Assembly: GCA_965214255.1 (NCBI GenBank)
Contig: OZ243948.1
Coordinates: 1,433,885-1,497,884 of the forward strand
Reading direction: 5' to 3'
Source: Alphaproteobacteria bacterium
GTDB taxonomy: Bacteria; Pseudomonadota; Alphaproteobacteria; SMXP01
Length of the DNA stretch: 64,000 nucleotides
Shown here in pieces: positions 1 to 8,083 of the stretch (its first letter is position 1; each line of letters begins with the position of its first letter). The translations under genes were made by a program, and so were the position numbers. The notes under the pieces were generated by a model. That model saw only the letters and a list, made by a program, of their open reading frames with translations, did no database searches and was not told where the DNA came from.

Positions 1-608
1 AACGCGAACAGTTTTTCCCGAGGGTCGCGGTCGCGCTTGTACTGCTCGACGGCGTCGTCGGCGGTCTGCTTGGTGAGGCTGTTCTTCAGTTCGAAGGTGA
101 GGACGGGAAGGCCGTTGATGAACAGCGCGATGTCCAGCTCGCGCGAAGTCTCGTTCGCGCTGTAGCGCAGTTGCCGGGTGACGGTGAAGCGGTTCTGCTG
201 AAAACGCTCTTGCGCCGTCTCGTTGCCCGGGGACGGGGTGCCGTAGAACAGGTCGATCCGGTGGGCGCCGTGTTTGACGCCATCTCGGAGTACGTCAACG
301 GTCCCGCGCTTGGAGACTTCGCCGCGCAACCGGTCCAGGAACTTGCGGCGGGTGGGGCCGTCTTCCGAAAGGCTCAGAGACTCGGCGACACGAGGTTGCG
401 TCTCCCGGAGGAAGGCGGAGAGTTGGTGCAGGTCGACGCAGTGCTCCCGGTCGTAGTGGCGGTGACTGCCGGGTCTCCACCCGACGCCGCCAGGGGCCGC
501 GGACGTATCGAAGTCCGCCGCAGTGGCCGTCGGCTCGCACGGGTCGCCGGCCAGCGCCGTGCAGATCAGGCGTTCGAGGCCGCGTTCGGTGGTGTCTGTG
601 GTCGTCAT
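1..608 (-). CDS. hsdR: Type I restriction enzyme R subunit (HsdR), N-terminal part; gene runs off the window edge
   Basis: Minus-strand frame is open to position 1 with ATG at 608..606. Hand translation gives MTTTDTTERGLERLICTALAGDP... then ...RELDIALFINGLPVLTFELKNSLTKQTADDAVEQYKRDRDPREKLF, which is the conserved HsdR N-terminal region (D-x-x-L-F-x-N-G-x-P-x-x-x-x-E-x-K). It lies 5 bp downstream of orf256 in the same operon as hsdS and hsdM. Confidence 0.8.
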   Translation of the reverse strand, partial: MTTTDTTERGLERLICTALAGDPCEPTATAADFDTSAAPGGVGWRPGSHRHYDREHCVDLHQLSAFLRETQPRVAESLSLSEDGPTRRKFLDRLRGEVSKRGTVDVLRDGVKHGAHRIDLFYGTPSPGNETAQERFQQNRFTVTRQLRYSANETSRELDIALFINGLPVLTFELKNSLTKQTADDAVEQYKRDRDPREKLFA

Positions 609-613
609 GTCGC

Positions 614-1384
614 CTAGTTCAAGACGGCGACGAATTCGTCCGGTCGCGACCAGCACGAAACGGTGGATAAAGGCTCGATCATCTTGAAATCTTCATCGGA
701 CCAGACGTCGGACGTGTCGTCGAACAACGAAACGAACTCGTGGGCCTTCGGTCCTGCGGCGAGGTGATTCAGATCGTGCCAGACTGCCACCGCGTGCTCG
801 GAGACCCTGCGGGCCGCCGCACGGTTTCCGGTAGTCAAGACCAGAACAAGAGAACTTCGCCGCTCGGCGCGAACGTGAAAATCGATCGTCCAGCGATGCC
901 CCGAACGCCCGACCAGCTTCTCACCGGGTTCGAACTCAAACTCCCTCTCGGTAAGGAAGTCGGCGACGTCACCGGTAATAGACTGAACCGCCTGCGTTCG
1001 GAACGTGAACCACAGGTCGGATACGCGCAGGGCCGCCTGCGCGACCCGGGTGACGACCTCCGCAAGGTCGTCGCCGGGCCGACACTTCGCCTGAAGCATG
1101 CCCCGGCGGAACTCGATTCCATGCGTCACGCATGTATCTTCGATAAGCCGCGTCTGCTTCGGTGAGCGGCGCAACGACATGGACTGCATCCGAAGCCAGC
1201 CCGTGGTTTCGGCAAGGTCGCTCACCGTCACCCCGTTGTCATGGACTTGGCAGAAGAGATCGATGTTGTCGCCGTCCGGGTAGAGATAGGGCGTCCGAAT
1301 CCGTTGATGGTCTCCCTGCTCCGAGCAGGTGAACAAGGCGCCCAAGCGTTCCTGAAGATCACGGCAGATTTGGCTGGAGTCCAT
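614..1384 (-). CDS. Hypothetical protein (256 aa) encoded between hsdS and hsdR; no motif recognised
   Basis: ORF with ATG at 1384..1382 and stop 5 bp before the hsdR start. It is co-oriented and tightly packed inside the hsd operon. No signal peptide and no Walker, HEPN or Fic motifs were seen. Confidence 0.55.
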   Translation of the reverse strand: MDSSQICRDLQERLGALFTCSEQGDHQRIRTPYLYPDGDNIDLFCQVHDNGVTVSDLAETTGWLRMQSMSLRRSPKQTRLIEDTCVTHGIEFRRGMLQAKCRPGDDLAEVVTRVAQAALRVSDLWFTFRTQAVQSITGDVADFLTEREFEFEPGEKLVGRSGHRWTIDFHVRAERRSSLVLVLTTGNRAAARRVSEHAVAVWHDLNHLAAGPKAHEFVSLFDDTSDVWSDEDFKMIEPLSTVSCWSRPDEFVAVLN

Positions 1385-1423
1385 CAGAACATCTCACTTG
1401 GTTATCTTCTCGGCCAATGGAGT

Positions 1424-2875
1424 TCACACCGCCGCCGTTTCACGAGAGGCGTCGATATTGTCGGCTTCCGTCGGAGTCTCGTCAAGTCCGGGGTCGTCGG
1501 TCTCGTCTTCGGCGGCGAGGGGGTCGACCTGCGGCAGGGCCGCCGCCGCTTCGCGCACGTCTAGCTTGCCGGTGACGACATCGGCGACGAGGCGGGCGCG
1601 GTATTCGTCGAGCAGTTCGACTTCGCGGTCGGCGCGGGCGATGGCAGCGTCGATGTCGGCGGCAGCCTTGTCGAGATATGCGACGATGGCGGTTTGTTCG
1701 GGGAGGGGTGGTAAAATCACAGAGACTTTTTTCAACTCAGGCCAGTAAAGATTACGCTGTATTGTTCCTACCCCCTTGGAAAAAATCAGATATTGCGAAA
1801 CCATCAATTTTGTGCGTAGCAAGTAATTTGCATATACCGGATTCCAGCAATCGTTGAGACTTAAGACAATGTATGCTGGGCTTACTATTCCTTTGTATTG
1901 GGATACGCCTACCGATCCACGCCAAGCCTGTTGGTTGTTAAGAACAAAATCTCCCGGATCGACAGCTTGATAGTTAATCAAATCAACGCTTGTGGCATTT
2001 GCGCGCTTTTCTTCGACATCAGAAAACCTAACAACAGATTTATCCAGGTAGACGGAAAGAAGCTCTCGTTCCGGACAGTTACGCACGGACTTTAGATTGG
2101 AAACTGCACAGATCGGTAACACCTCCCAATGCGCCGGTACTTCCCCCAGCCATTCGACGCCGGAGTCCTTCATGGGCGCGTCGGGGTCGAGGCCGCGGGT
2201 GACGGCGCGGTGGACGAGGGCCTGCTTTTGCTCTTTGAGCAGAGCCACCAGCTTGCGCTTCGCCTTCGTGAGCCACCGCACCCGCCGGTCTATGTAGTCC
2301 AGATACCGCACGATGGCAGTTTGTTCATCCGGCGCCGTTGGAACCGCGACCGATATTTCTCGCATCCGAGCCTTCGACAAGTCCCACTGTCCAATACGAA
2401 CCCCATCTGAAGCCTTGTTGAAGCTAGGAACATACGCCTTTGATCTTATGGCCGTGTGAAAGAAGTCGCCATCGACTCCATGAAGGGCAAACACGAAGTA
2501 CGCGGGACTCACCAGCCCATTAAATTTCGACACACCATACGAGCCCTGCCACGCCTTCATCTTGTTCATGGCAAATTGACCTTGTTGAACGACCTTGTAA
2601 TTGCTTAGGTCGTCGGGAACGTAATTGTGGTTTTCGTCCCTATTGGAGAGGTCTCTAAGAATCACACCCTGTTCCCGCACCACTGATAGCAGAGGCAAAT
2701 CAGGCTGATTTCTAGTGACAACAGATCGGAGAAGGTGCCTTAGTTTCTTGATTTCCCAATGCGCCGGTACTTCGCCCAGCCACGCGACGCCGGAGTCCTT
2801 CATTTCGGGATAGGGTTCGAGTGTCTTGGCAACGGCTGCGGCCGTCGCTTCCACAGGTCGATCGGTCCCGGTCAT
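1424..2875 (-). CDS. hsdS: Type I R-M specificity subunit HsdS with two target-recognition domains
   Basis: The duplicated conserved segments KDSGVAWLGEVPAHWE and KDSGVEWLGEVPAHWE and the PEQTAIV motifs fit the two-TRD HsdS architecture. Preferred start is the ATG at 2875, which forms an ATGA overlap with the orf126 stop; the ORF track extends to 2902. Confidence 0.9.
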   Translation of the reverse strand: MTGTDRPVEATAAAVAKTLEPYPEMKDSGVAWLGEVPAHWEIKKLRHLLRSVVTRNQPDLPLLSVVREQGVILRDLSNRDENHNYVPDDLSNYKVVQQGQFAMNKMKAWQGSYGVSKFNGLVSPAYFVFALHGVDGDFFHTAIRSKAYVPSFNKASDGVRIGQWDLSKARMREISVAVPTAPDEQTAIVRYLDYIDRRVRWLTKAKRKLVALLKEQKQALVHRAVTRGLDPDAPMKDSGVEWLGEVPAHWEVLPICAVSNLKSVRNCPERELLSVYLDKSVVRFSDVEEKRANATSVDLINYQAVDPGDFVLNNQQAWRGSVGVSQYKGIVSPAYIVLSLNDCWNPVYANYLLRTKLMVSQYLIFSKGVGTIQRNLYWPELKKVSVILPPLPEQTAIVAYLDKAAADIDAAIARADREVELLDEYRARLVADVVTGKLDVREAAAALPQVDPLAAEDETDDPGLDETPTEADNIDASRETAAV

Positions 2876-3252
2876 GGAGCGGCATCCGCCTTGTACCGCC
2901 AACCGCGCTCCGTAGCGGCTACGGTGAGCCGTTTCGCCTTCTTTTCGACTTGCGTGTTGGAGCAGGCGGTGAAATCGATCAGCGCATGAGCGGGATGAGG
3001 CTCAGGATCGGGCTCAACCGGCAAGTCCTGCGCGGCACAGTCGCCACGGGAGACGGCGAGGACGCCGACCGAGGCGAACCCGAGATCTCCCGTGTAATAC
3101 GCCCAGGCGTCTTCAGCCGTAATCAGATCGCCGTCATAAACCGACAGACGCTTGCCGTCCTTGGGGAAAGGTTTGAACGCCTGGCTGGTCACGCGGCCTT
3201 TCTGTACCCAGGACGGGCTAACCTGACGATACAGCAAGGCGTCGTCGTTCAT
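2872..3252 (-). CDS. Hypothetical protein (126 aa), translationally coupled to orf375 upstream and hsdS downstream
   Basis: ATGA overlaps occur at both ends (3249-3252 and 2872-2875). Sequence: MNDDALLYRQVSPSWVQKGRVTSQAFKPFPKDGKRLSVYDGD...HALIDF. No recognisable family. Confidence 0.5.
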   Translation of the reverse strand: MNDDALLYRQVSPSWVQKGRVTSQAFKPFPKDGKRLSVYDGDLITAEDAWAYYTGDLGFASVGVLAVSRGDCAAQDLPVEPDPEPHPAHALIDFTACSNTQVEKKAKRLTVAATERGWRYKADAAP

Positions 3253-4376
3253 GACGCCTTGCCCAGGGTTTTCTCAAGTTTCTCAACGAGCCATGCCCAG
3301 GAATCGTCATCCTCGAGACCGAGCTCGCGGGTCTCTTCGTCGTCGGTCTCCAGGTCGAGTCCGTGCCATGTGCCGCGCTTATCGGCCAAGTGAATATCCA
3401 GCGACAAGTTCCACCGGTCGTTCGACCACTCGGCGCGAATGTCGCCTTCGGGAGTGGGATAGAGGTGCGGCAACACGGTTTCATCGGGATAATGAAGATC
3501 GCAGGCTCTTTCCAGCCAATCGACCCCGTCCGCCGGAGGAGCTTTGCCTTCCCCTTCCAGCCAGCCGTCCTTCAGCAGGCGTATCTCGTCGAGCCGCGCG
3601 CCGATGTCCAGAGGATCGAGGGCGTTGATGTGCTCGATGGAATCGAATCGGACCAATTTTCCGCCGCGATTCACGACGCCTACTCCTTGAATCAGAACCT
3701 TTTGCCCGGCCTGATAGCCGTTGAACACTTCCAATATGGTGTCTCGGTGTTGCGGAGCAATGGGCGCCGCCACCTTCTTGCCGTCAGGCAACTGCAACTC
3801 GAACCGCATATTGTCCTGATCCGCCTCCGGGACCAGGCCGCGAATGGCGGTCTCCTCGGCGATCTCCCGCGCCGAGGCGGATGCGTAGACCAGTCGTCGC
3901 CTGATTTCGCGGTCGAGTCTTGCGGGAGCAGGCCCGCTCCGCGTTCCGAATTCCATGGCTTCCCCTTCCCGAAGGCTTCGCCCCATCCGGTCGAAGTAGC
4001 TGAGCCATTTCTCGGGCAGGTAATCCGTAATTCCCTCTCCTTTTTCAGCGGCGGCAATGGCCGAAACGATCAAATTACGGGCCTTCTCGAAGTACTTCTG
4101 ATTCACCGGCGGAAACAGCGTCGGAGAGGCCGTAACCAGCGAGATCACGGGAACCGCGCTGCCGTCCTCGATGCCCGTCAGCTTCAATTCGATGCCGTTG
4201 GTAAATCCGCGCGGCGATCTTTTTCGGTCAGGATGGTCTTTGAGAAACTCGGTTTTCGCCACCTCGACGATCATCTCCTCAAGGACGGCCAGGTCCTTCA
4301 AAAACTCCAAGGGGATCGCCTTCCCTTCGAAGCGACTTCCGGTCAGCCTGGGTCGCATGAACTCATGTGCGCTCAT
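3249..4376 (-). CDS. Hypothetical protein (375 aa) within the hsd operon
   Basis: Long ORF with good codon periodicity that overlaps the fic stop by 14 bp and orf126 by ATGA. No catalytic motif recognised; the C-terminus is acidic (…LETDDEETRELGLEDDDSWAWLVEKLEK). Confidence 0.55.
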   Translation of the reverse strand: MSAHEFMRPRLTGSRFEGKAIPLEFLKDLAVLEEMIVEVAKTEFLKDHPDRKRSPRGFTNGIELKLTGIEDGSAVPVISLVTASPTLFPPVNQKYFEKARNLIVSAIAAAEKGEGITDYLPEKWLSYFDRMGRSLREGEAMEFGTRSGPAPARLDREIRRRLVYASASAREIAEETAIRGLVPEADQDNMRFELQLPDGKKVAAPIAPQHRDTILEVFNGYQAGQKVLIQGVGVVNRGGKLVRFDSIEHINALDPLDIGARLDEIRLLKDGWLEGEGKAPPADGVDWLERACDLHYPDETVLPHLYPTPEGDIRAEWSNDRWNLSLDIHLADKRGTWHGLDLETDDEETRELGLEDDDSWAWLVEKLEKTLGKAS

Positions 4377-5607
4377 CGTTCACCTCGACGGTTTCCCCGC
4401 CCGGACTCTCGCCCGCCAATCCCTCGCTCTCACGTTCCGGCGCGGCATCCAGTTCGGTTCCTTCATTGAGGATGGCCAAGTACCGGCCATAAGCGAACAG
4501 GCGCCCGTAGTGCCTTCCCGTAACTTCACGGACAATCCCGTAGTCGACAAGCCGGTCCATCGCCGATGAAACGGCGGGAAAGGAGAGCACCTTGCGCTTG
4601 CAAATCTCGGAAATGGAGAGGATCGGTCGTTCCGTCAGGGCCTGATGCACGAGCAAGGCCGAACCGGTGCGGCGGCCCCGCCTTTCTATGGCTTCCCTGT
4701 CTTTCATAAACATCTCGGACAGGCGGCGAGAGGTGGCGACCGCGTCTTCGGCGCCCACCCGCACGCTTTCGAGAAAGAAAGCCAGCCACGCTTCCCAGTC
4801 ACCGGTGCGGCGCACATGGTCCAACAAATCATAATACGTGCTTTGGCGGCGCTTGAAGTAAAGGCTCAAATACAGCAGCGGTTCCCGCAATACGCCGGAC
4901 CGACAAAGCAGAAGAACGATCAACAGCCGCCCGATGCGCCCGTTGCCGTCGAGGAAGGGATGGACGGTCTCGAACTGTACATGGGCGAGCCCCGCGCGGA
5001 TCAATACCGGCAGCCCGTCGTCCTCCGCGTTCAGAAAGCGCTCCAGGTCGGACATGCAGTCCTGCACGGCGGTATACGGCGGGGGCACGAATACCGCGTT
5101 GCCGGGCCGGGTGCCGCCAATCCAGTTCTGCGAACGGCGGAATTCGCCGGGCGCCTTGTTGCTTCCCCGCCCTCTCCGCAACAACACGCCGTGAATCTCG
5201 CGGATCAGACGATTGGACATCGGGAAGCCTTCCCGCAGGCGGCTCAGGCCGTGCTCCAGGGCGGCCACATGGTTCGAGACTTCGACGACATCGTCCAGCG
5301 GCACGCCGGACCTCTCCTGCGACTCATAAAGCAGGAGATCGGAAAAGGACGATTGCGTTCCCTCTATCTGCGAGGACAGGACGGCTTCCTTGCGTACATA
5401 GGCGTAAAGAAAGAGCGTCGAGTCGGGTAAAAACGCCGAGATGTTATCGAGCCGGCCGAGGGCGAGGGCCGCCGATTCGAAGGACTGTTGCAGAGCGCCG
5501 TCCAGGACGGGCGGGGGATCGGGCGGCAGCGGCGCAGGCAGAAAGGCGCGGACCCGTTCGCCCCCCGCGCTCGTGATTTCGTATCCGCCTATTTCTCCGC
5601 GCTCCAT
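4363..5607 (-). CDS. fic: Fic-family protein (adenylyltransferase/AMPylator fold) with an N-terminal inhibitory helix motif
   Basis: Canonical Fic motif HPFLDGNGRIGRLL (HxFx[DE]GNGRxxR). An upstream [ST]xxxE[GN] inhibitory motif (SSQIEG) is consistent with a class II arrangement. C-terminal region is wHTH-like. ATG at 5607..5605. Confidence 0.85.
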   Translation of the reverse strand: MERGEIGGYEITSAGGERVRAFLPAPLPPDPPPVLDGALQQSFESAALALGRLDNISAFLPDSTLFLYAYVRKEAVLSSQIEGTQSSFSDLLLYESQERSGVPLDDVVEVSNHVAALEHGLSRLREGFPMSNRLIREIHGVLLRRGRGSNKAPGEFRRSQNWIGGTRPGNAVFVPPPYTAVQDCMSDLERFLNAEDDGLPVLIRAGLAHVQFETVHPFLDGNGRIGRLLIVLLLCRSGVLREPLLYLSLYFKRRQSTYYDLLDHVRRTGDWEAWLAFFLESVRVGAEDAVATSRRLSEMFMKDREAIERRGRRTGSALLVHQALTERPILSISEICKRKVLSFPAVSSAMDRLVDYGIVREVTGRHYGRLFAYGRYLAILNEGTELDAAPERESEGLAGESPGGETVEVNDERT

Positions 5608-5686
5608 ATCGGATGAGTACCGAGTGATTTAAAGGAAATTGAATTTACCACTGTGAAATTAAAATTTCACGCAAAAAATTTAATTT
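5563..5686. repeat. Direct repeat copy A (~124 bp): AT-rich segment plus the first ~15 codons of fic
   Basis: About 92% identical to 5947..6069, including the stretch gagtaccgagtgatttaaaggaaattgaatttaccactgtgaaattaaaatttcacgcaaaaaatttaatt. Confidence 0.8.
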
Positions 5687-5743
5687 GCTGTAACCGGCAG
5701 TCCTTCGGGTTCCCGCTCCAAAGCCGGAATGCGGCTCCATATG

Positions 5744-5903
5744 TAACGCAGCCTTTCATACGGCAAGAATATGGTTCTATATGTTCGGCAGCCGTTCATA
5801 TAGCGGGCATTTGGGCCCATATGTAACGCAGCCGTTCATATAGCGGGAATGTGGACCCATATGTAACGCAGCCTTGAATATGGCGTTCTGTTGAGGCGGC
5901 CTT
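5744..5903. repeat. 4 x 40-bp tandem repeat, each unit containing CATATG/CATATA palindromic elements
   Basis: The units ggctccatatgtaacgcagcctttcatacggcaagaatat, ggttctatatgttcggcagccgttcatatagcgggcattt, gggcccatatgtaacgcagccgttcatatagcgggaatgt and ggacccatatgtaacgcagccttgaatatggcgttctgtt are directly adjacent. GC is about 45%. Confidence 0.8.
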
Positions 5904-5946
5904 GAACATTCATGCGGGACACTCCCCGACGATCTCGCCCGGCAGT

Positions 5947-6069
5947 CCCCGCGCTCGTGGTTTCGTATCCGCCTGTTTCTCCGCGCCGCATATCGGATGA
6001 GTACCGAGTGATTTAAAGGAAATTGAATTTACCACTGTGAAATTAAATTTTCACGCAAAAAACTTAATT
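5947..6069. repeat. Direct repeat copy B with a degenerate fic start (MRRGETGGYETTSAG) fused to an hsdM-3'-end-like tail
   Basis: Reverse-complement reads atg cgg cgc gga gaa aca ggc gga tac gaa acc acg agc gcg ggg, then act gcc ggg cga gat cgt cgg. This tail resembles the hsdM terminus gct gct ggg cga gat cgt cgg caa gta g. Copy B lies 40 bp downstream of the true hsdM stop. Confidence 0.7.
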
Positions 6070-6109
6070 CTCTACAAGTAAAACCTTACATCAAGACAGG
6101 TTCAGGTTC

Positions 6110-8083
6110 CTACTTGCCGACGATCTCGCCCAGCAGCCCCCCGCTCTCCCGTCCCAGCGCGAGGATGTCGCCTCGAATCTCCTCAAGGGAGCGCATCGGC
6201 TCCGGCTTGTAGAAGTGGCGCGTGAAGCTGATCTCGTAGCCGATCTTGACAGCTTCCGGGCGATACCAGGCGTCGGGCGCGTAGGGCAAGACCTCGCGCT
6301 TCAGGAACGCCTCTATGCCGCCCTTCTCGGTGAGCGGGACCTGCTCCGTGTCGCGCAGGTCCGGGTCCGGCTCGTACTCGACCACGGCGGGTTCGCCCTC
6401 GACGGTCGCCTCGAACAAGCCATGCAGAGGGTCCGCCCCCCCCCGCCTGTGGATCTTGCGGATGACGGGCGGCGCGTCCTCGGAGCGCGCGCCGGTCTCT
6501 TTGAGCGTCTTGATCTCCGCCGCCTTGCAGGCGCGGTTCGGGTCGGCGCCCTCGATGCGGAGCGGGCGCTCCACGACCACTTTCCAATACCCGAAAGCCT
6601 CGTTGTCGAAGATCCTGCTCCGCTCGGTTTCCTCGAAATCGAGGAACGCCTCGCAGATGCGCCGGATGTCGTCCTCGCCCAACTCGCAGTTCTTCTTGCC
6701 CAGATTCTTACGCAGGGGCCGGTACCACTCGGTCGCGTCGATGAGTTGCACTTTGCCCCGGCGGTGCTCCGGCTTGCGGTTGGTCAGCACCCAGACGTAG
6801 GTGGCGATGCCGGTGTTGTAGAACAGGTTCAGCGGCAGCGCGACGATCGCTTCCAGCCAGTCGTTCTCGATGATCCAGCGGCGGATGTTGCTCTCGCCCT
6901 GGCCGGCGTCGCCGGTGAACAGCGAACTGCCGTTGTGGACCTCGGCGATGCGGCTGCCGAGGGGCGTGTCCCGCTTCATCTTGGAGAGCAGGTTGACGAG
7001 GAACAGCATCTGCCCGTCGCTCGACCGCGTCACCAGGGAATATTCCGGGTCGTCGCCGTGTTGGATCATAAAGCGCGGATCGTGCATGTCCTTCTTGCCG
7101 CCCATGCGCTCCAGGTCCGTCTTCCAGCTTTTGCCGTAGGGCGGATTGGAGAGCATGAAGTCGAACGCGCGCGGGTGGGGGTAGGCATCGTTGGCCAGGG
7201 TGGAGTGTTGCGGGCCGCCCTCGATTTTATCCGCGTCATCGCCCTCGCCCTTGAGCATCAGGTCGGCCTTGCAGATCGCCGCGGTCTCCGCGTTGATCTC
7301 CTGGCCGTAGAGGTGCGTCGAGACCTGTTTCCCGCGTTCCGCGGCCAGTTCCTGCAGCGTCTGTTCCGCCAGGGTCAGCATGCCGCCGGTCCCGCACGCG
7401 CCGTCATAGAGAAGGTACGTGCCGGATTCGATCCGGTCGGAGATCGGCTGGAACACCAGCTTCGCCATCAGCCGCACCGCGTCGCGGGGCGTCCAGTGCT
7501 CACCGGCCTCCTCGTTGTTCTCCTCGTTGAAGCGGCGCACCAGTTCTTCGAAGATCGTACCGATGGCGTGGTTGTCGAGGCCCGGGAGCTTGATATCGCC
7601 TTTGGCGTCCTTGACGGGTTCCGGGCTCAGGTTCACCTTGGGGGAGGTGAATTTCTCGATCAAGACCCCGAGCGCGTCGGCGCGGCTCAGGCGGGGGATC
7701 TGGTTGCGGAACTCGAAGTTGTCGAGTATCTCCTGCACGTTCGGCGAGAATCCGTCGAGATAGGCCAAGAAGTCCGCTTCAAGTTGGTGCTGGTTGCCTC
7801 GCGCCCGCAGATCGTTGAGCGTGAATTGGGAGGTGTTGTAGAACGCCTGCCCCGACGCCTGGCGCAAGGCGGCGCTCTGGTCGACCAGACCGGCCCGGTC
7901 GAGACTGGCCTTCATGTCGAGGACCGCCCGTTTGGTGTCTTCGAGGACCGCGTCGAGACGACGCAGGACGGTCATCGGGAGGATCACGTCGCGGTACTTG
8001 CCCCGCGTGTAGAGGTCCCGGAGCACGTCATCGGCGATTCCCCAAATGTAGTTCGCAATCCACGTTACATCGCCGTTGGTCAT
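6110..8083 (-). CDS. hsdM: Type I R-M N6-adenine DNA methyltransferase subunit HsdM (long form, 657 aa)
   Basis: NPPYG catalytic motif (LSNPPYGKSW) and a SAM-binding region (LYDGACGTGGML). Neighbours hsdS and hsdR lie on the same strand. Confidence 0.9.
   Translation of the reverse strand: MTNGDVTWIANYIWGIADDVLRDLYTRGKYRDVILPMTVLRRLDAVLEDTKRAVLDMKASLDRAGLVDQSAALRQASGQAFYNTSQFTLNDLRARGNQHQLEADFLAYLDGFSPNVQEILDNFEFRNQIPRLSRADALGVLIEKFTSPKVNLSPEPVKDAKGDIKLPGLDNHAIGTIFEELVRRFNEENNEEAGEHWTPRDAVRLMAKLVFQPISDRIESGTYLLYDGACGTGGMLTLAEQTLQELAAERGKQVSTHLYGQEINAETAAICKADLMLKGEGDDADKIEGGPQHSTLANDAYPHPRAFDFMLSNPPYGKSWKTDLERMGGKKDMHDPRFMIQHGDDPEYSLVTRSSDGQMLFLVNLLSKMKRDTPLGSRIAEVHNGSSLFTGDAGQGESNIRRWIIENDWLEAIVALPLNLFYNTGIATYVWVLTNRKPEHRRGKVQLIDATEWYRPLRKNLGKKNCELGEDDIRRICEAFLDFEETERSRIFDNEAFGYWKVVVERPLRIEGADPNRACKAAEIKTLKETGARSEDAPPVIRKIHRRGGADPLHGLFEATVEGEPAVVEYEPDPDLRDTEQVPLTEKGGIEAFLKREVLPYAPDAWYRPEAVKIGYEISFTRHFYKPEPMRSLEEIRGDILALGRESGGLLGEIVGK

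Follow-up and report, generated by a model that had tools for sequence, protein, structure and literature searches.

PDC-M32, a coupled gene pair nested in a type I restriction-modification operon, as a candidate ADP-ribosyltransferase-fold toxin and its antitoxin

An abortive-infection-type effector nested between hsd genes is known from PrrC/EcoprrI, in which the anticodon nuclease PrrC is regulated by Hsd proteins. A set of 145 "guilt-by-embedding" candidates was drawn up by Payne et al. purely from genes found inside BREX, DISARM and type I restriction-modification (R-M) systems (bioRxiv 10.1101/2024.01.29.577857), and one of these, PDC-M32, appears in the supplement of that paper as cassette CAS_00128 (FAM_01821>>FAM_00608, number 98). 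The catalogue entry is a name only and consists of two hypothetical proteins. The sole further paper located that names PDC-M32 reports a PADLOC match in a Sinorhizobium prophage (PMC12429752), and M32 is not among the eight PDC/HEC candidates tested in another study (PMC12881386). Described here is a PDC-M32 gene pair, termed A and B, from Alphaproteobacteria bacterium (SMXP01). It is found in a window of 64,000 nucleotides (nt), the whole stretch of DNA that was analysed (contig OZ243948.1 of GCA_965214255.1, positions 1,433,885-1,497,884). With a probability of roughly 0.55, B is a toxin with an ADP-ribosyltransferase (ART) fold and A a tethered immunity/sensor antitoxin, the two probably acting in abortive infection.

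Gene A is situated on the minus strand at window positions 3249-4376, starts with ATG and encodes 375 amino acids (aa). It matches the PADLOC PDC-M32A model PDLC04574 over its full length (E = 2.6e-145; residues 2-372 against profile positions 2-373 of 376). Gene B, adjacent on the same strand at 2872-3252 with a 4-nt overlap and also an ATG start, encodes 126 aa and matches the PDC-M32B model PDLC04579 (E = 2.1e-51; residues 1-121 against a 123-position profile). The A-B pair is the PADLOC candidate PDC-M32, catalogued already and functionally unannotated, and it does not differ from the catalogue entry, whose gene order and type I R-M embedding it shares. A and B each also belong to PHROG families of unknown function. 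A sequence-only reading of this DNA had described the two proteins as either highly diverged or novel. As a statement that they are unclassified this does not stand, given the PADLOC matches. Pfam and NCBIfam (both at E <= 1) and PDB-sequence profile searches give nothing for A or B. The three domains of A scanned separately against Pfam also show no match.

The nesting of the pair between fic and hsdS is borne out by the open reading frame list and by the raw sequence, and the ATGA overlaps read at the A/B and B/hsdS junctions match the raw sequence exactly. The plus strand shows TCAT at both 3249-3252 and 2872-2875, hence ATGA when the coding strand is read: at each junction the stop codon of one gene overlaps the start codon of the next. 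The A/B overlap (3249-3252, minus strand) is of the kind that gives translational coupling, and the B/hsdS overlap (2872-2875, minus strand) has the same form. The end of the Fic gene and the start of A overlap by 14 nt (4363-4376, minus strand); judged by this overlap, A and B are co-transcribed with Fic in the present window.

The predicted structure of B displays an ART fold with a split β-sheet, as seen in its structural matches, which include TreTu, Tse2 (the second-best match) and DarT. No catalytic fold had been recognised from the letters of the sequence, and for B this is now superseded by the structure prediction. In a set of 111 paired sequences, in which the B sequences have a mean pairwise divergence of ~46%, residues R9, F26, D32, S37, G41, G63 and H89 of B are invariant. 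R9 is found on predicted strand 1 within the motif LLYRQV and S37 on predicted strand 2 within the motif LSVYDG, while H89 opens predicted strand 5. By position along the modelled fold, rather than by residue-level superposition, R9, S37 and H89 may represent an R-S-H version of the ART triad. The C-terminal helix of B (residues 99-116) is basic, with an isoelectric point (pI) of ~10 and a charge of +4.

The AlphaFold2 model of A (pLDDT 88.7) shows three domains. The N-terminal domain (aa 1-168; 3873-4376, minus strand) is α/β in its predicted secondary structure and is the most conserved part of A, with G13, R15, P22, F58, G72, F128, G132, R133, L135, E139 and R159 invariant in 111 sequences. 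The central domain (aa 169-256; 3609-3872, minus strand) has an OB fold and is acidic. The C-terminal domain (aa 257-375; 3252-3608, minus strand) has an α-β5-α arrangement, is very acidic and is proposed to be the immunity domain that neutralises B. Across the family the C-terminal domain has a median net charge of -15 and a pI of 4.3, and this charge complements that of the C-terminal helix of B. The best structural matches of A are OB folds, followed by TriTu, the immunity protein of the ART toxin TreTu, and the published architecture of TriTu agrees with the C-terminal domain of A. A Foldseek search of A against the PDB added only OB-fold matches and left the N-terminal domain without a match. 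Pfam scans of A, both whole and by domain, show no match to HTH, RHH or AbrB domains. There is likewise no Pfam macrodomain match in A, whose fold matches consist of OB folds and TriTu.

The pair was followed through 165 loci, 80 of them anchored on A (GTDB genomes) and 85 on B (5 from IMG/VR and 80 from metagenomes). The A-anchored loci are found in Planctomycetota, Latescibacterota, Acidobacteriota, Chloroflexota, Proteobacteria, Verrucomicrobiota, Spirochaetota, Nitrospirales and others. Of the A-anchored loci, 72 carry B; in 61 of these the two genes share a 4-nt NTGA overlap, and in nearly all of the others they overlap by 1, 8 or 11 nt. On the B-anchored side, A is directly upstream of B in 78 of 85 loci, and the other seven end within 175 nt of B; wherever at least 175 nt of upstream sequence is present, the C-terminal domain of A lies directly upstream of B (78/78 loci).

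Co-occurrence of the two genes is asymmetric. In two Latescibacterota genomes A is full length and B is frameshifted after ~20-35 codons (locus L029, 9131-9379; locus L031, 9119-9577). No B follows the intact A of L043, which adjoins a convergent gene for 999 aa, or that of L045, and B is truncated beside an intact A in L049, L056, L069 and L073. Retention of A with loss of B would be the pattern of decay if B were a toxin and A its antidote. The pair also displays several features of a type II toxin-antitoxin system: the genes are co-directional and coupled with the proposed antitoxin, A, first, B is not found without A in the informative loci, and A occurs as an orphan. The ART fold of B gives the pair the type II polarity, in which the large upstream gene would be the antitoxin and the small downstream gene the toxin.

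Short variants of A, 129-264 aa in length and carried by several loci, match only positions ~255-373 of the PDC-M32A hidden Markov model. Their N-termini are unrelated to A, and an intact, overlapping B follows each of them. One of these variants (P0393, 160 aa) carries a PF01954/AF2212-like antitoxin-type domain, and one short form recurs on 12 contigs. Because the short variants keep the C-terminal domain together with an intact B, the C-terminal domain and B form the conserved core of the system, and the N-terminal/OB part is an exchangeable accessory. Inter-protein mutual information (Neff ~89) places 24 of the top 50 pairs in the C-terminal domain of A, against ~16 expected. The leading pairs combine H338, S325 and D345 in the sheet of that domain with K107 and R108 in the C-terminal helix of B, and this covariation is suggestive only.

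A further layout is found in two loci, L175 (4289-5938) and L177 (4325-6165), where only 1 nt separates the short A from an unrelated neighbouring gene of 236 or 224 aa. The arrangement hints at three-gene variants of the system. That the gene upstream of the short A is the detached N-terminal/OB half of A was considered and rejected, as hhalign gives a probability of <=0.5% and the two upstream genes show no relationship to one another.

At least 624 homologs of A are found, nearly all of 368-400 aa, and 402 homologs of B, of 122-140 aa. When the B profile was run against 1.84 billion cluster representatives, 1308 clusters were obtained at E <= 1e-3, almost all of them stand-alone proteins of 120-140 aa. 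A search among the homologs and the B clusters showed no A-B fusion, and a miscalled start or a frameshifted tail accounts for each of the few longer "B" entries. A and B are each predicted as complete domains with high confidence. A single decayed gene was rejected as a description of the pair, since A and B are separate, real and conserved in length.

Informative flanks on both sides are present in 84 loci. The pair lies between hsdM and hsdS in 25 of these, has an hsd gene on one side only in 7, and has neither neighbour in 52; an obligate association with hsd genes is not what the survey shows. Cassettes standing alone between housekeeping genes, e.g. in L084, L171 and L174, indicate that A-B is mobile. 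A-B is thus an autonomous and mobile cassette that prefers the hsdM/hsdS hot spot. The likeness to a toxin/antitoxin or abortive-infection-type coupled module, seen earlier in the sequence-only reading, is upheld by the conserved NTGA overlap together with this distribution. In other embedded loci hsdS starts at or beside the end of B, as found in L002, L009, L092, L093, L172 and L173. In embedded loci elsewhere the operon also contains DarT-Macro, RhuM or a Schlafen-like ATPase, and one A-B locus follows a complete R-M system beside an IS21 element. A-B is also found on 5 IMG/VR viral contigs. Of the 80 genome loci, only 2 have Fic next to A-B, so Fic was rejected as a member of the module.

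In a Desulfobulbaceae-type hsd operon (L082, 4056-5428; L081, 11327-12394), A-B is situated between hsdM and hsdS, and the same operon carries, between hsdS and hsdR, a DarTG made up of a fragment of DarT and a gene for a macrodomain protein. DarTG and A-B would here be two different ART-type modules in one R-M operon. On an IMG/VR contig (L087, 1-6418), a divergent A-B, with A 33% identical, is found between genes for a 930-aa DNA methyltransferase-like protein and a 700-aa UvrD-like helicase. The placement suggests that (pro)phages carry A-B inside further cassettes of a defence or R-M-like type as well.

The model proposed for the pair is built on the observed gene anatomy, family membership, predicted folds, co-occurrence asymmetry, modularity and charge complementarity. 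A-B would be an autonomous, mobile toxin-antitoxin-type module that often settles inside type I R-M operons, and B a minimal 126-aa ART-fold enzyme with an R-S-H site and a basic C-terminal helix. A would be translated first, and termination-reinitiation at the NTGA would yield B at a level no higher than that of A. The acidic C-terminal domain of A would bind B, capping its NAD+/substrate face and the basic helix as TriTu does on TreTu, and B would be held inactive. The N-terminal domain and the OB fold would be accessory, most likely serving sensing or regulation, either by way of a phage cue or through the stability of A. When A is degraded or sequestered, or answers a phage cue, B would be released and would ADP-ribosylate an essential target, and the infected cell would be halted (abortive infection). 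B might act on nucleic acid, in the manner of DarT, CmdT and Tpt1-like enzymes, or, like TreTu, on a translation factor. A-B binding, toxicity, NAD+ use, target, trigger and defence phenotype all enter the model as predicted parts.

A broader and tentative reading, against which the odds lie, is that PDC-M32 represents an unrecognised, widespread ART immune family consisting of an R-S-H enzyme, a portable acidic immunity domain and interchangeable sensor front ends, with a target that would be new among defence ARTs. The B family extends over at least 1300 clusters at 50% identity, in many bacterial phyla and some phages. In the broader reading the N-terminal domain with the OB fold, the PF01954-like domain and the unrelated extensions would be alternative infection sensors.

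Several observations weigh against the toxin and antitoxin model. At position 88 of B most of the family has Glu, whereas the protein of the window has Ala. The canonical catalytic Glu is not conserved and strand 5 carries the invariant His instead, and for this reason the predicted catalysis is unproven. No sequence link of B to any ART family (DarT, RES, PTS_2-RNA, ADPRTs_Tse2, etc.) is found in Pfam, NCBIfam or PDB profiles. hhalign of the B profile against Tse2, with a Tse2 sequence verified against PDB 5AKO, gives a probability of 0.4%, and as there is no Pfam Tse2 match either, a relationship of B to Tse2 by sequence was rejected. Tse2 itself, the second-best structural match, has no demonstrated ART activity. 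On the side of A, the TriTu match was assigned to the C-terminal domain without residue ranges, so that the assignment is putative. A role of the OB domain as a nucleic-acid sensor is doubtful because the domain is acidic (pI ~5.2). Mirror-tree partial correlations with B are 0.355 for the C-terminal domain, 0.278 for the N-terminal domain and 0.015 for the OB domain, values that barely separate the C-terminal from the N-terminal domain and are too weak to decide. Loci with the end of hsdM in the 150 nt ahead of A were excluded from an operator search; in the remaining 104, palindromes upstream of A are not enriched (mean best arm 5.5, against 5.3 in shuffled sequence), and classic type II autoregulation is therefore unsupported. 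Finally, no domain annotation, mechanism or phage assay of PDC-M32 was found in the literature.

Among the other explanations, a selfish addiction (post-segregational killing) module is unlikely. Its architecture is that of the preferred model: the same ART-like toxin and antitoxin would stabilise themselves and the hsd island and would have no part in phage defence. All of the toxin-antitoxin-type evidence fits this equally, and so do the 52 hsd-free loci, several of which lie among housekeeping genes with no other defence gene near, and the lack of a PDC-M32 phage assay in the literature. However, in ~30% of the loci the pair occupies exactly the interval from hsdM to hsdS, known as a hot spot of defence genes, and the recurrent neighbours of the pair are defence genes (SoFic, DarTG, RhuM). 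The ~255 conserved residues that A carries beyond the minimal B-associated domain are also hard to justify for simple neutralisation.

A small chance is likewise given to a two-subunit modifying enzyme, in which A would recruit the substrate through its OB and N-terminal domains and B would be the catalytic and non-toxic partner, either as an NAD+-dependent transferase or as a 2'-phosphotransferase of the Tpt1 kind, with foreign or damaged nucleic acid as its substrate. Against this, the short variants drop both the OB and the N-terminal domain with B still intact, and the OB domain is acidic. Loss of B beside an intact A corresponds to the decay of a toxin and not to that of a catalytic subunit. 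The catalytic tetrad of Tpt1 is Arg-His-Arg-Arg, and the residues invariant in B include nothing that evidently corresponds to it. Quite improbable is a catalytically dead ART-like fold in B, which would then be a stoichiometric binding-type toxin like Tse2, with A still as its immunity partner. The strict invariance of R9, S37, D32 and H89 in the 111 sequences, at the divergence given above, suggests an active site, and TreTu is an active enzyme despite an unorthodox ART site (PMC9825190). The last explanation, that A and B are accessory or regulatory type I R-M subunits or fragments of one decayed gene, both of which the sequence-only reading had named as outcomes that would undo it, draws on the nesting in the window's hsd operon and the coupling of B to hsdS and is effectively refuted by the survey, in which neither hsdM nor hsdS flanks the pair in 52 of the 84 informative loci. 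Lengths are constant in both families, fusions are absent, and complete domains fold with high confidence.

The pair stands in an operon-like array that occupies window positions 1-8083 on the minus strand and runs from hsdM to hsdR, as seen in the open reading frame list and the raw sequence. hsdM (6110-8083, minus strand) shows the Pfam domains HsdM_N and N6_Mtase. It is separated from the Fic gene by a spacer of ~500 nt that contains repeats. The Fic gene (4363-5607, minus strand) displays Fic_N and Fic domains and matches the PADLOC SoFic model with E = 1.3e-112; its protein scores 148 bits against the 550-bit cut-off of the NCBIfam SoFic equivalog, far below it. On the other side of A and B, hsdS (1424-2875, minus strand, with its ATG at 2875) carries Methylase_S, and it is followed by a gene for a 256-aa DUF1828 protein (614-1384, minus strand; PADLOC PDC-M24B, E = 5e-100). 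The 5' end of hsdR extends on the minus strand from 608 to the window edge. The defence context of A-B in the window thus consists of the hsd operon, SoFic and PDC-M24B. The DUF1828 protein, situated between hsdS and hsdR, is a second embedded defence candidate of the hsd operon, and with Fic and A-B there are three defence-type cassettes inside one type I R-M operon.

In the stretch that separates hsdM from the Fic gene, 40-nt tandem repeats form an array at 5722-5881, with units such as CATATGTAACGCAGCCGTTCATATAGCGGG. A 123-nt direct repeat flanks this array at 5563-5685 and 5947-6069, the two copies being 95% identical. It is a duplication of the first ~15 codons of the Fic gene together with 78 nt upstream and so gives rise to a pseudo-start open reading frame at 5836-5991. 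The repeats at 5563-6069 may be an insertion or recombination scar, or an iteron-like regulatory array. In hsdS the target-recognition domains (1650-2100 and 2400-2700) have a G+C content of 0.44-0.50, against 0.60-0.66 for the rest of the operon. The low G+C suggests that the recognition domains were acquired horizontally or swapped.

When the pair is set beside described systems, it falls outside the DarTG, RES-Xre and Tse2 families, as the sequence domains that define these are absent when searched for. The comparison with Tse2/Tsi2, RES-Xre, ParST and MbcTA shows no Pfam RES or Tse2 match in B and no Xre HTH domain in A. With DarTG and CmdTAC the likeness is one of logic: an ART-fold toxin is restrained until infection and then acts by abortive ADP-ribosylation, of DNA in the case of DarT and of mRNA in the case of CmdT. 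The antitoxin DarG is a macrodomain hydrolase that reverses the modification, whereas A has no macrodomain, and neither A nor B shows a Pfam match to DarT (PF14487) or Macro. CmdTAC requires a SecB-like chaperone, and no third conserved gene was found with A-B. PrrC/EcoprrI is similar in having its effector between hsd genes; PrrC is almost exclusively embedded, however, whereas A-B is mostly found outside hsd operons and carries its own proposed neutraliser.

In architecture the nearest systems appear to be TreTu/TriTu, the ART toxin and immunity protein of a Salmonella Rhs type VI secretion system (T6SS; PDB 7ZHL/7ZHM), and Tse2/Tsi2, in which, as predicted for B and A, an ART-fold toxin is combined with a protein inhibitor of the lid type. 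Within a secreted Rhs polymorphic toxin directed against other bacteria, TreTu forms the C-terminal tip, whereas B is a free cytoplasmic protein, and compared with TriTu the immunity-like domain of A is fused to ~255 extra residues (the N-terminal domain and the OB fold). There is no sequence similarity between TreTu/TriTu and B/A, and EF-Tu could be suggested as the target of B only by analogy.

What is added here to the catalogue entry is the invariant R9/S37/H89 of B, the three-domain layout of A, its TriTu-like acidic C-terminal domain and the swappable N-terminal modules. A candidate known only by the names of its models thereby gains a testable mechanism, a set of residues (R9, S37 and H89) and a minimal core (A 257-375 with B). 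Should B prove inactive or non-toxic, the family would still be a widespread conserved pair, though a less interesting one. If the proposed model is correct, PDC-M32 would form a third architecture of ART-based anti-phage immunity beside DarTG and CmdTAC, and T6SS-type effector/immunity pairs such as TreTu/TriTu would be linked, evolutionarily or mechanistically, to intracellular defence modules.

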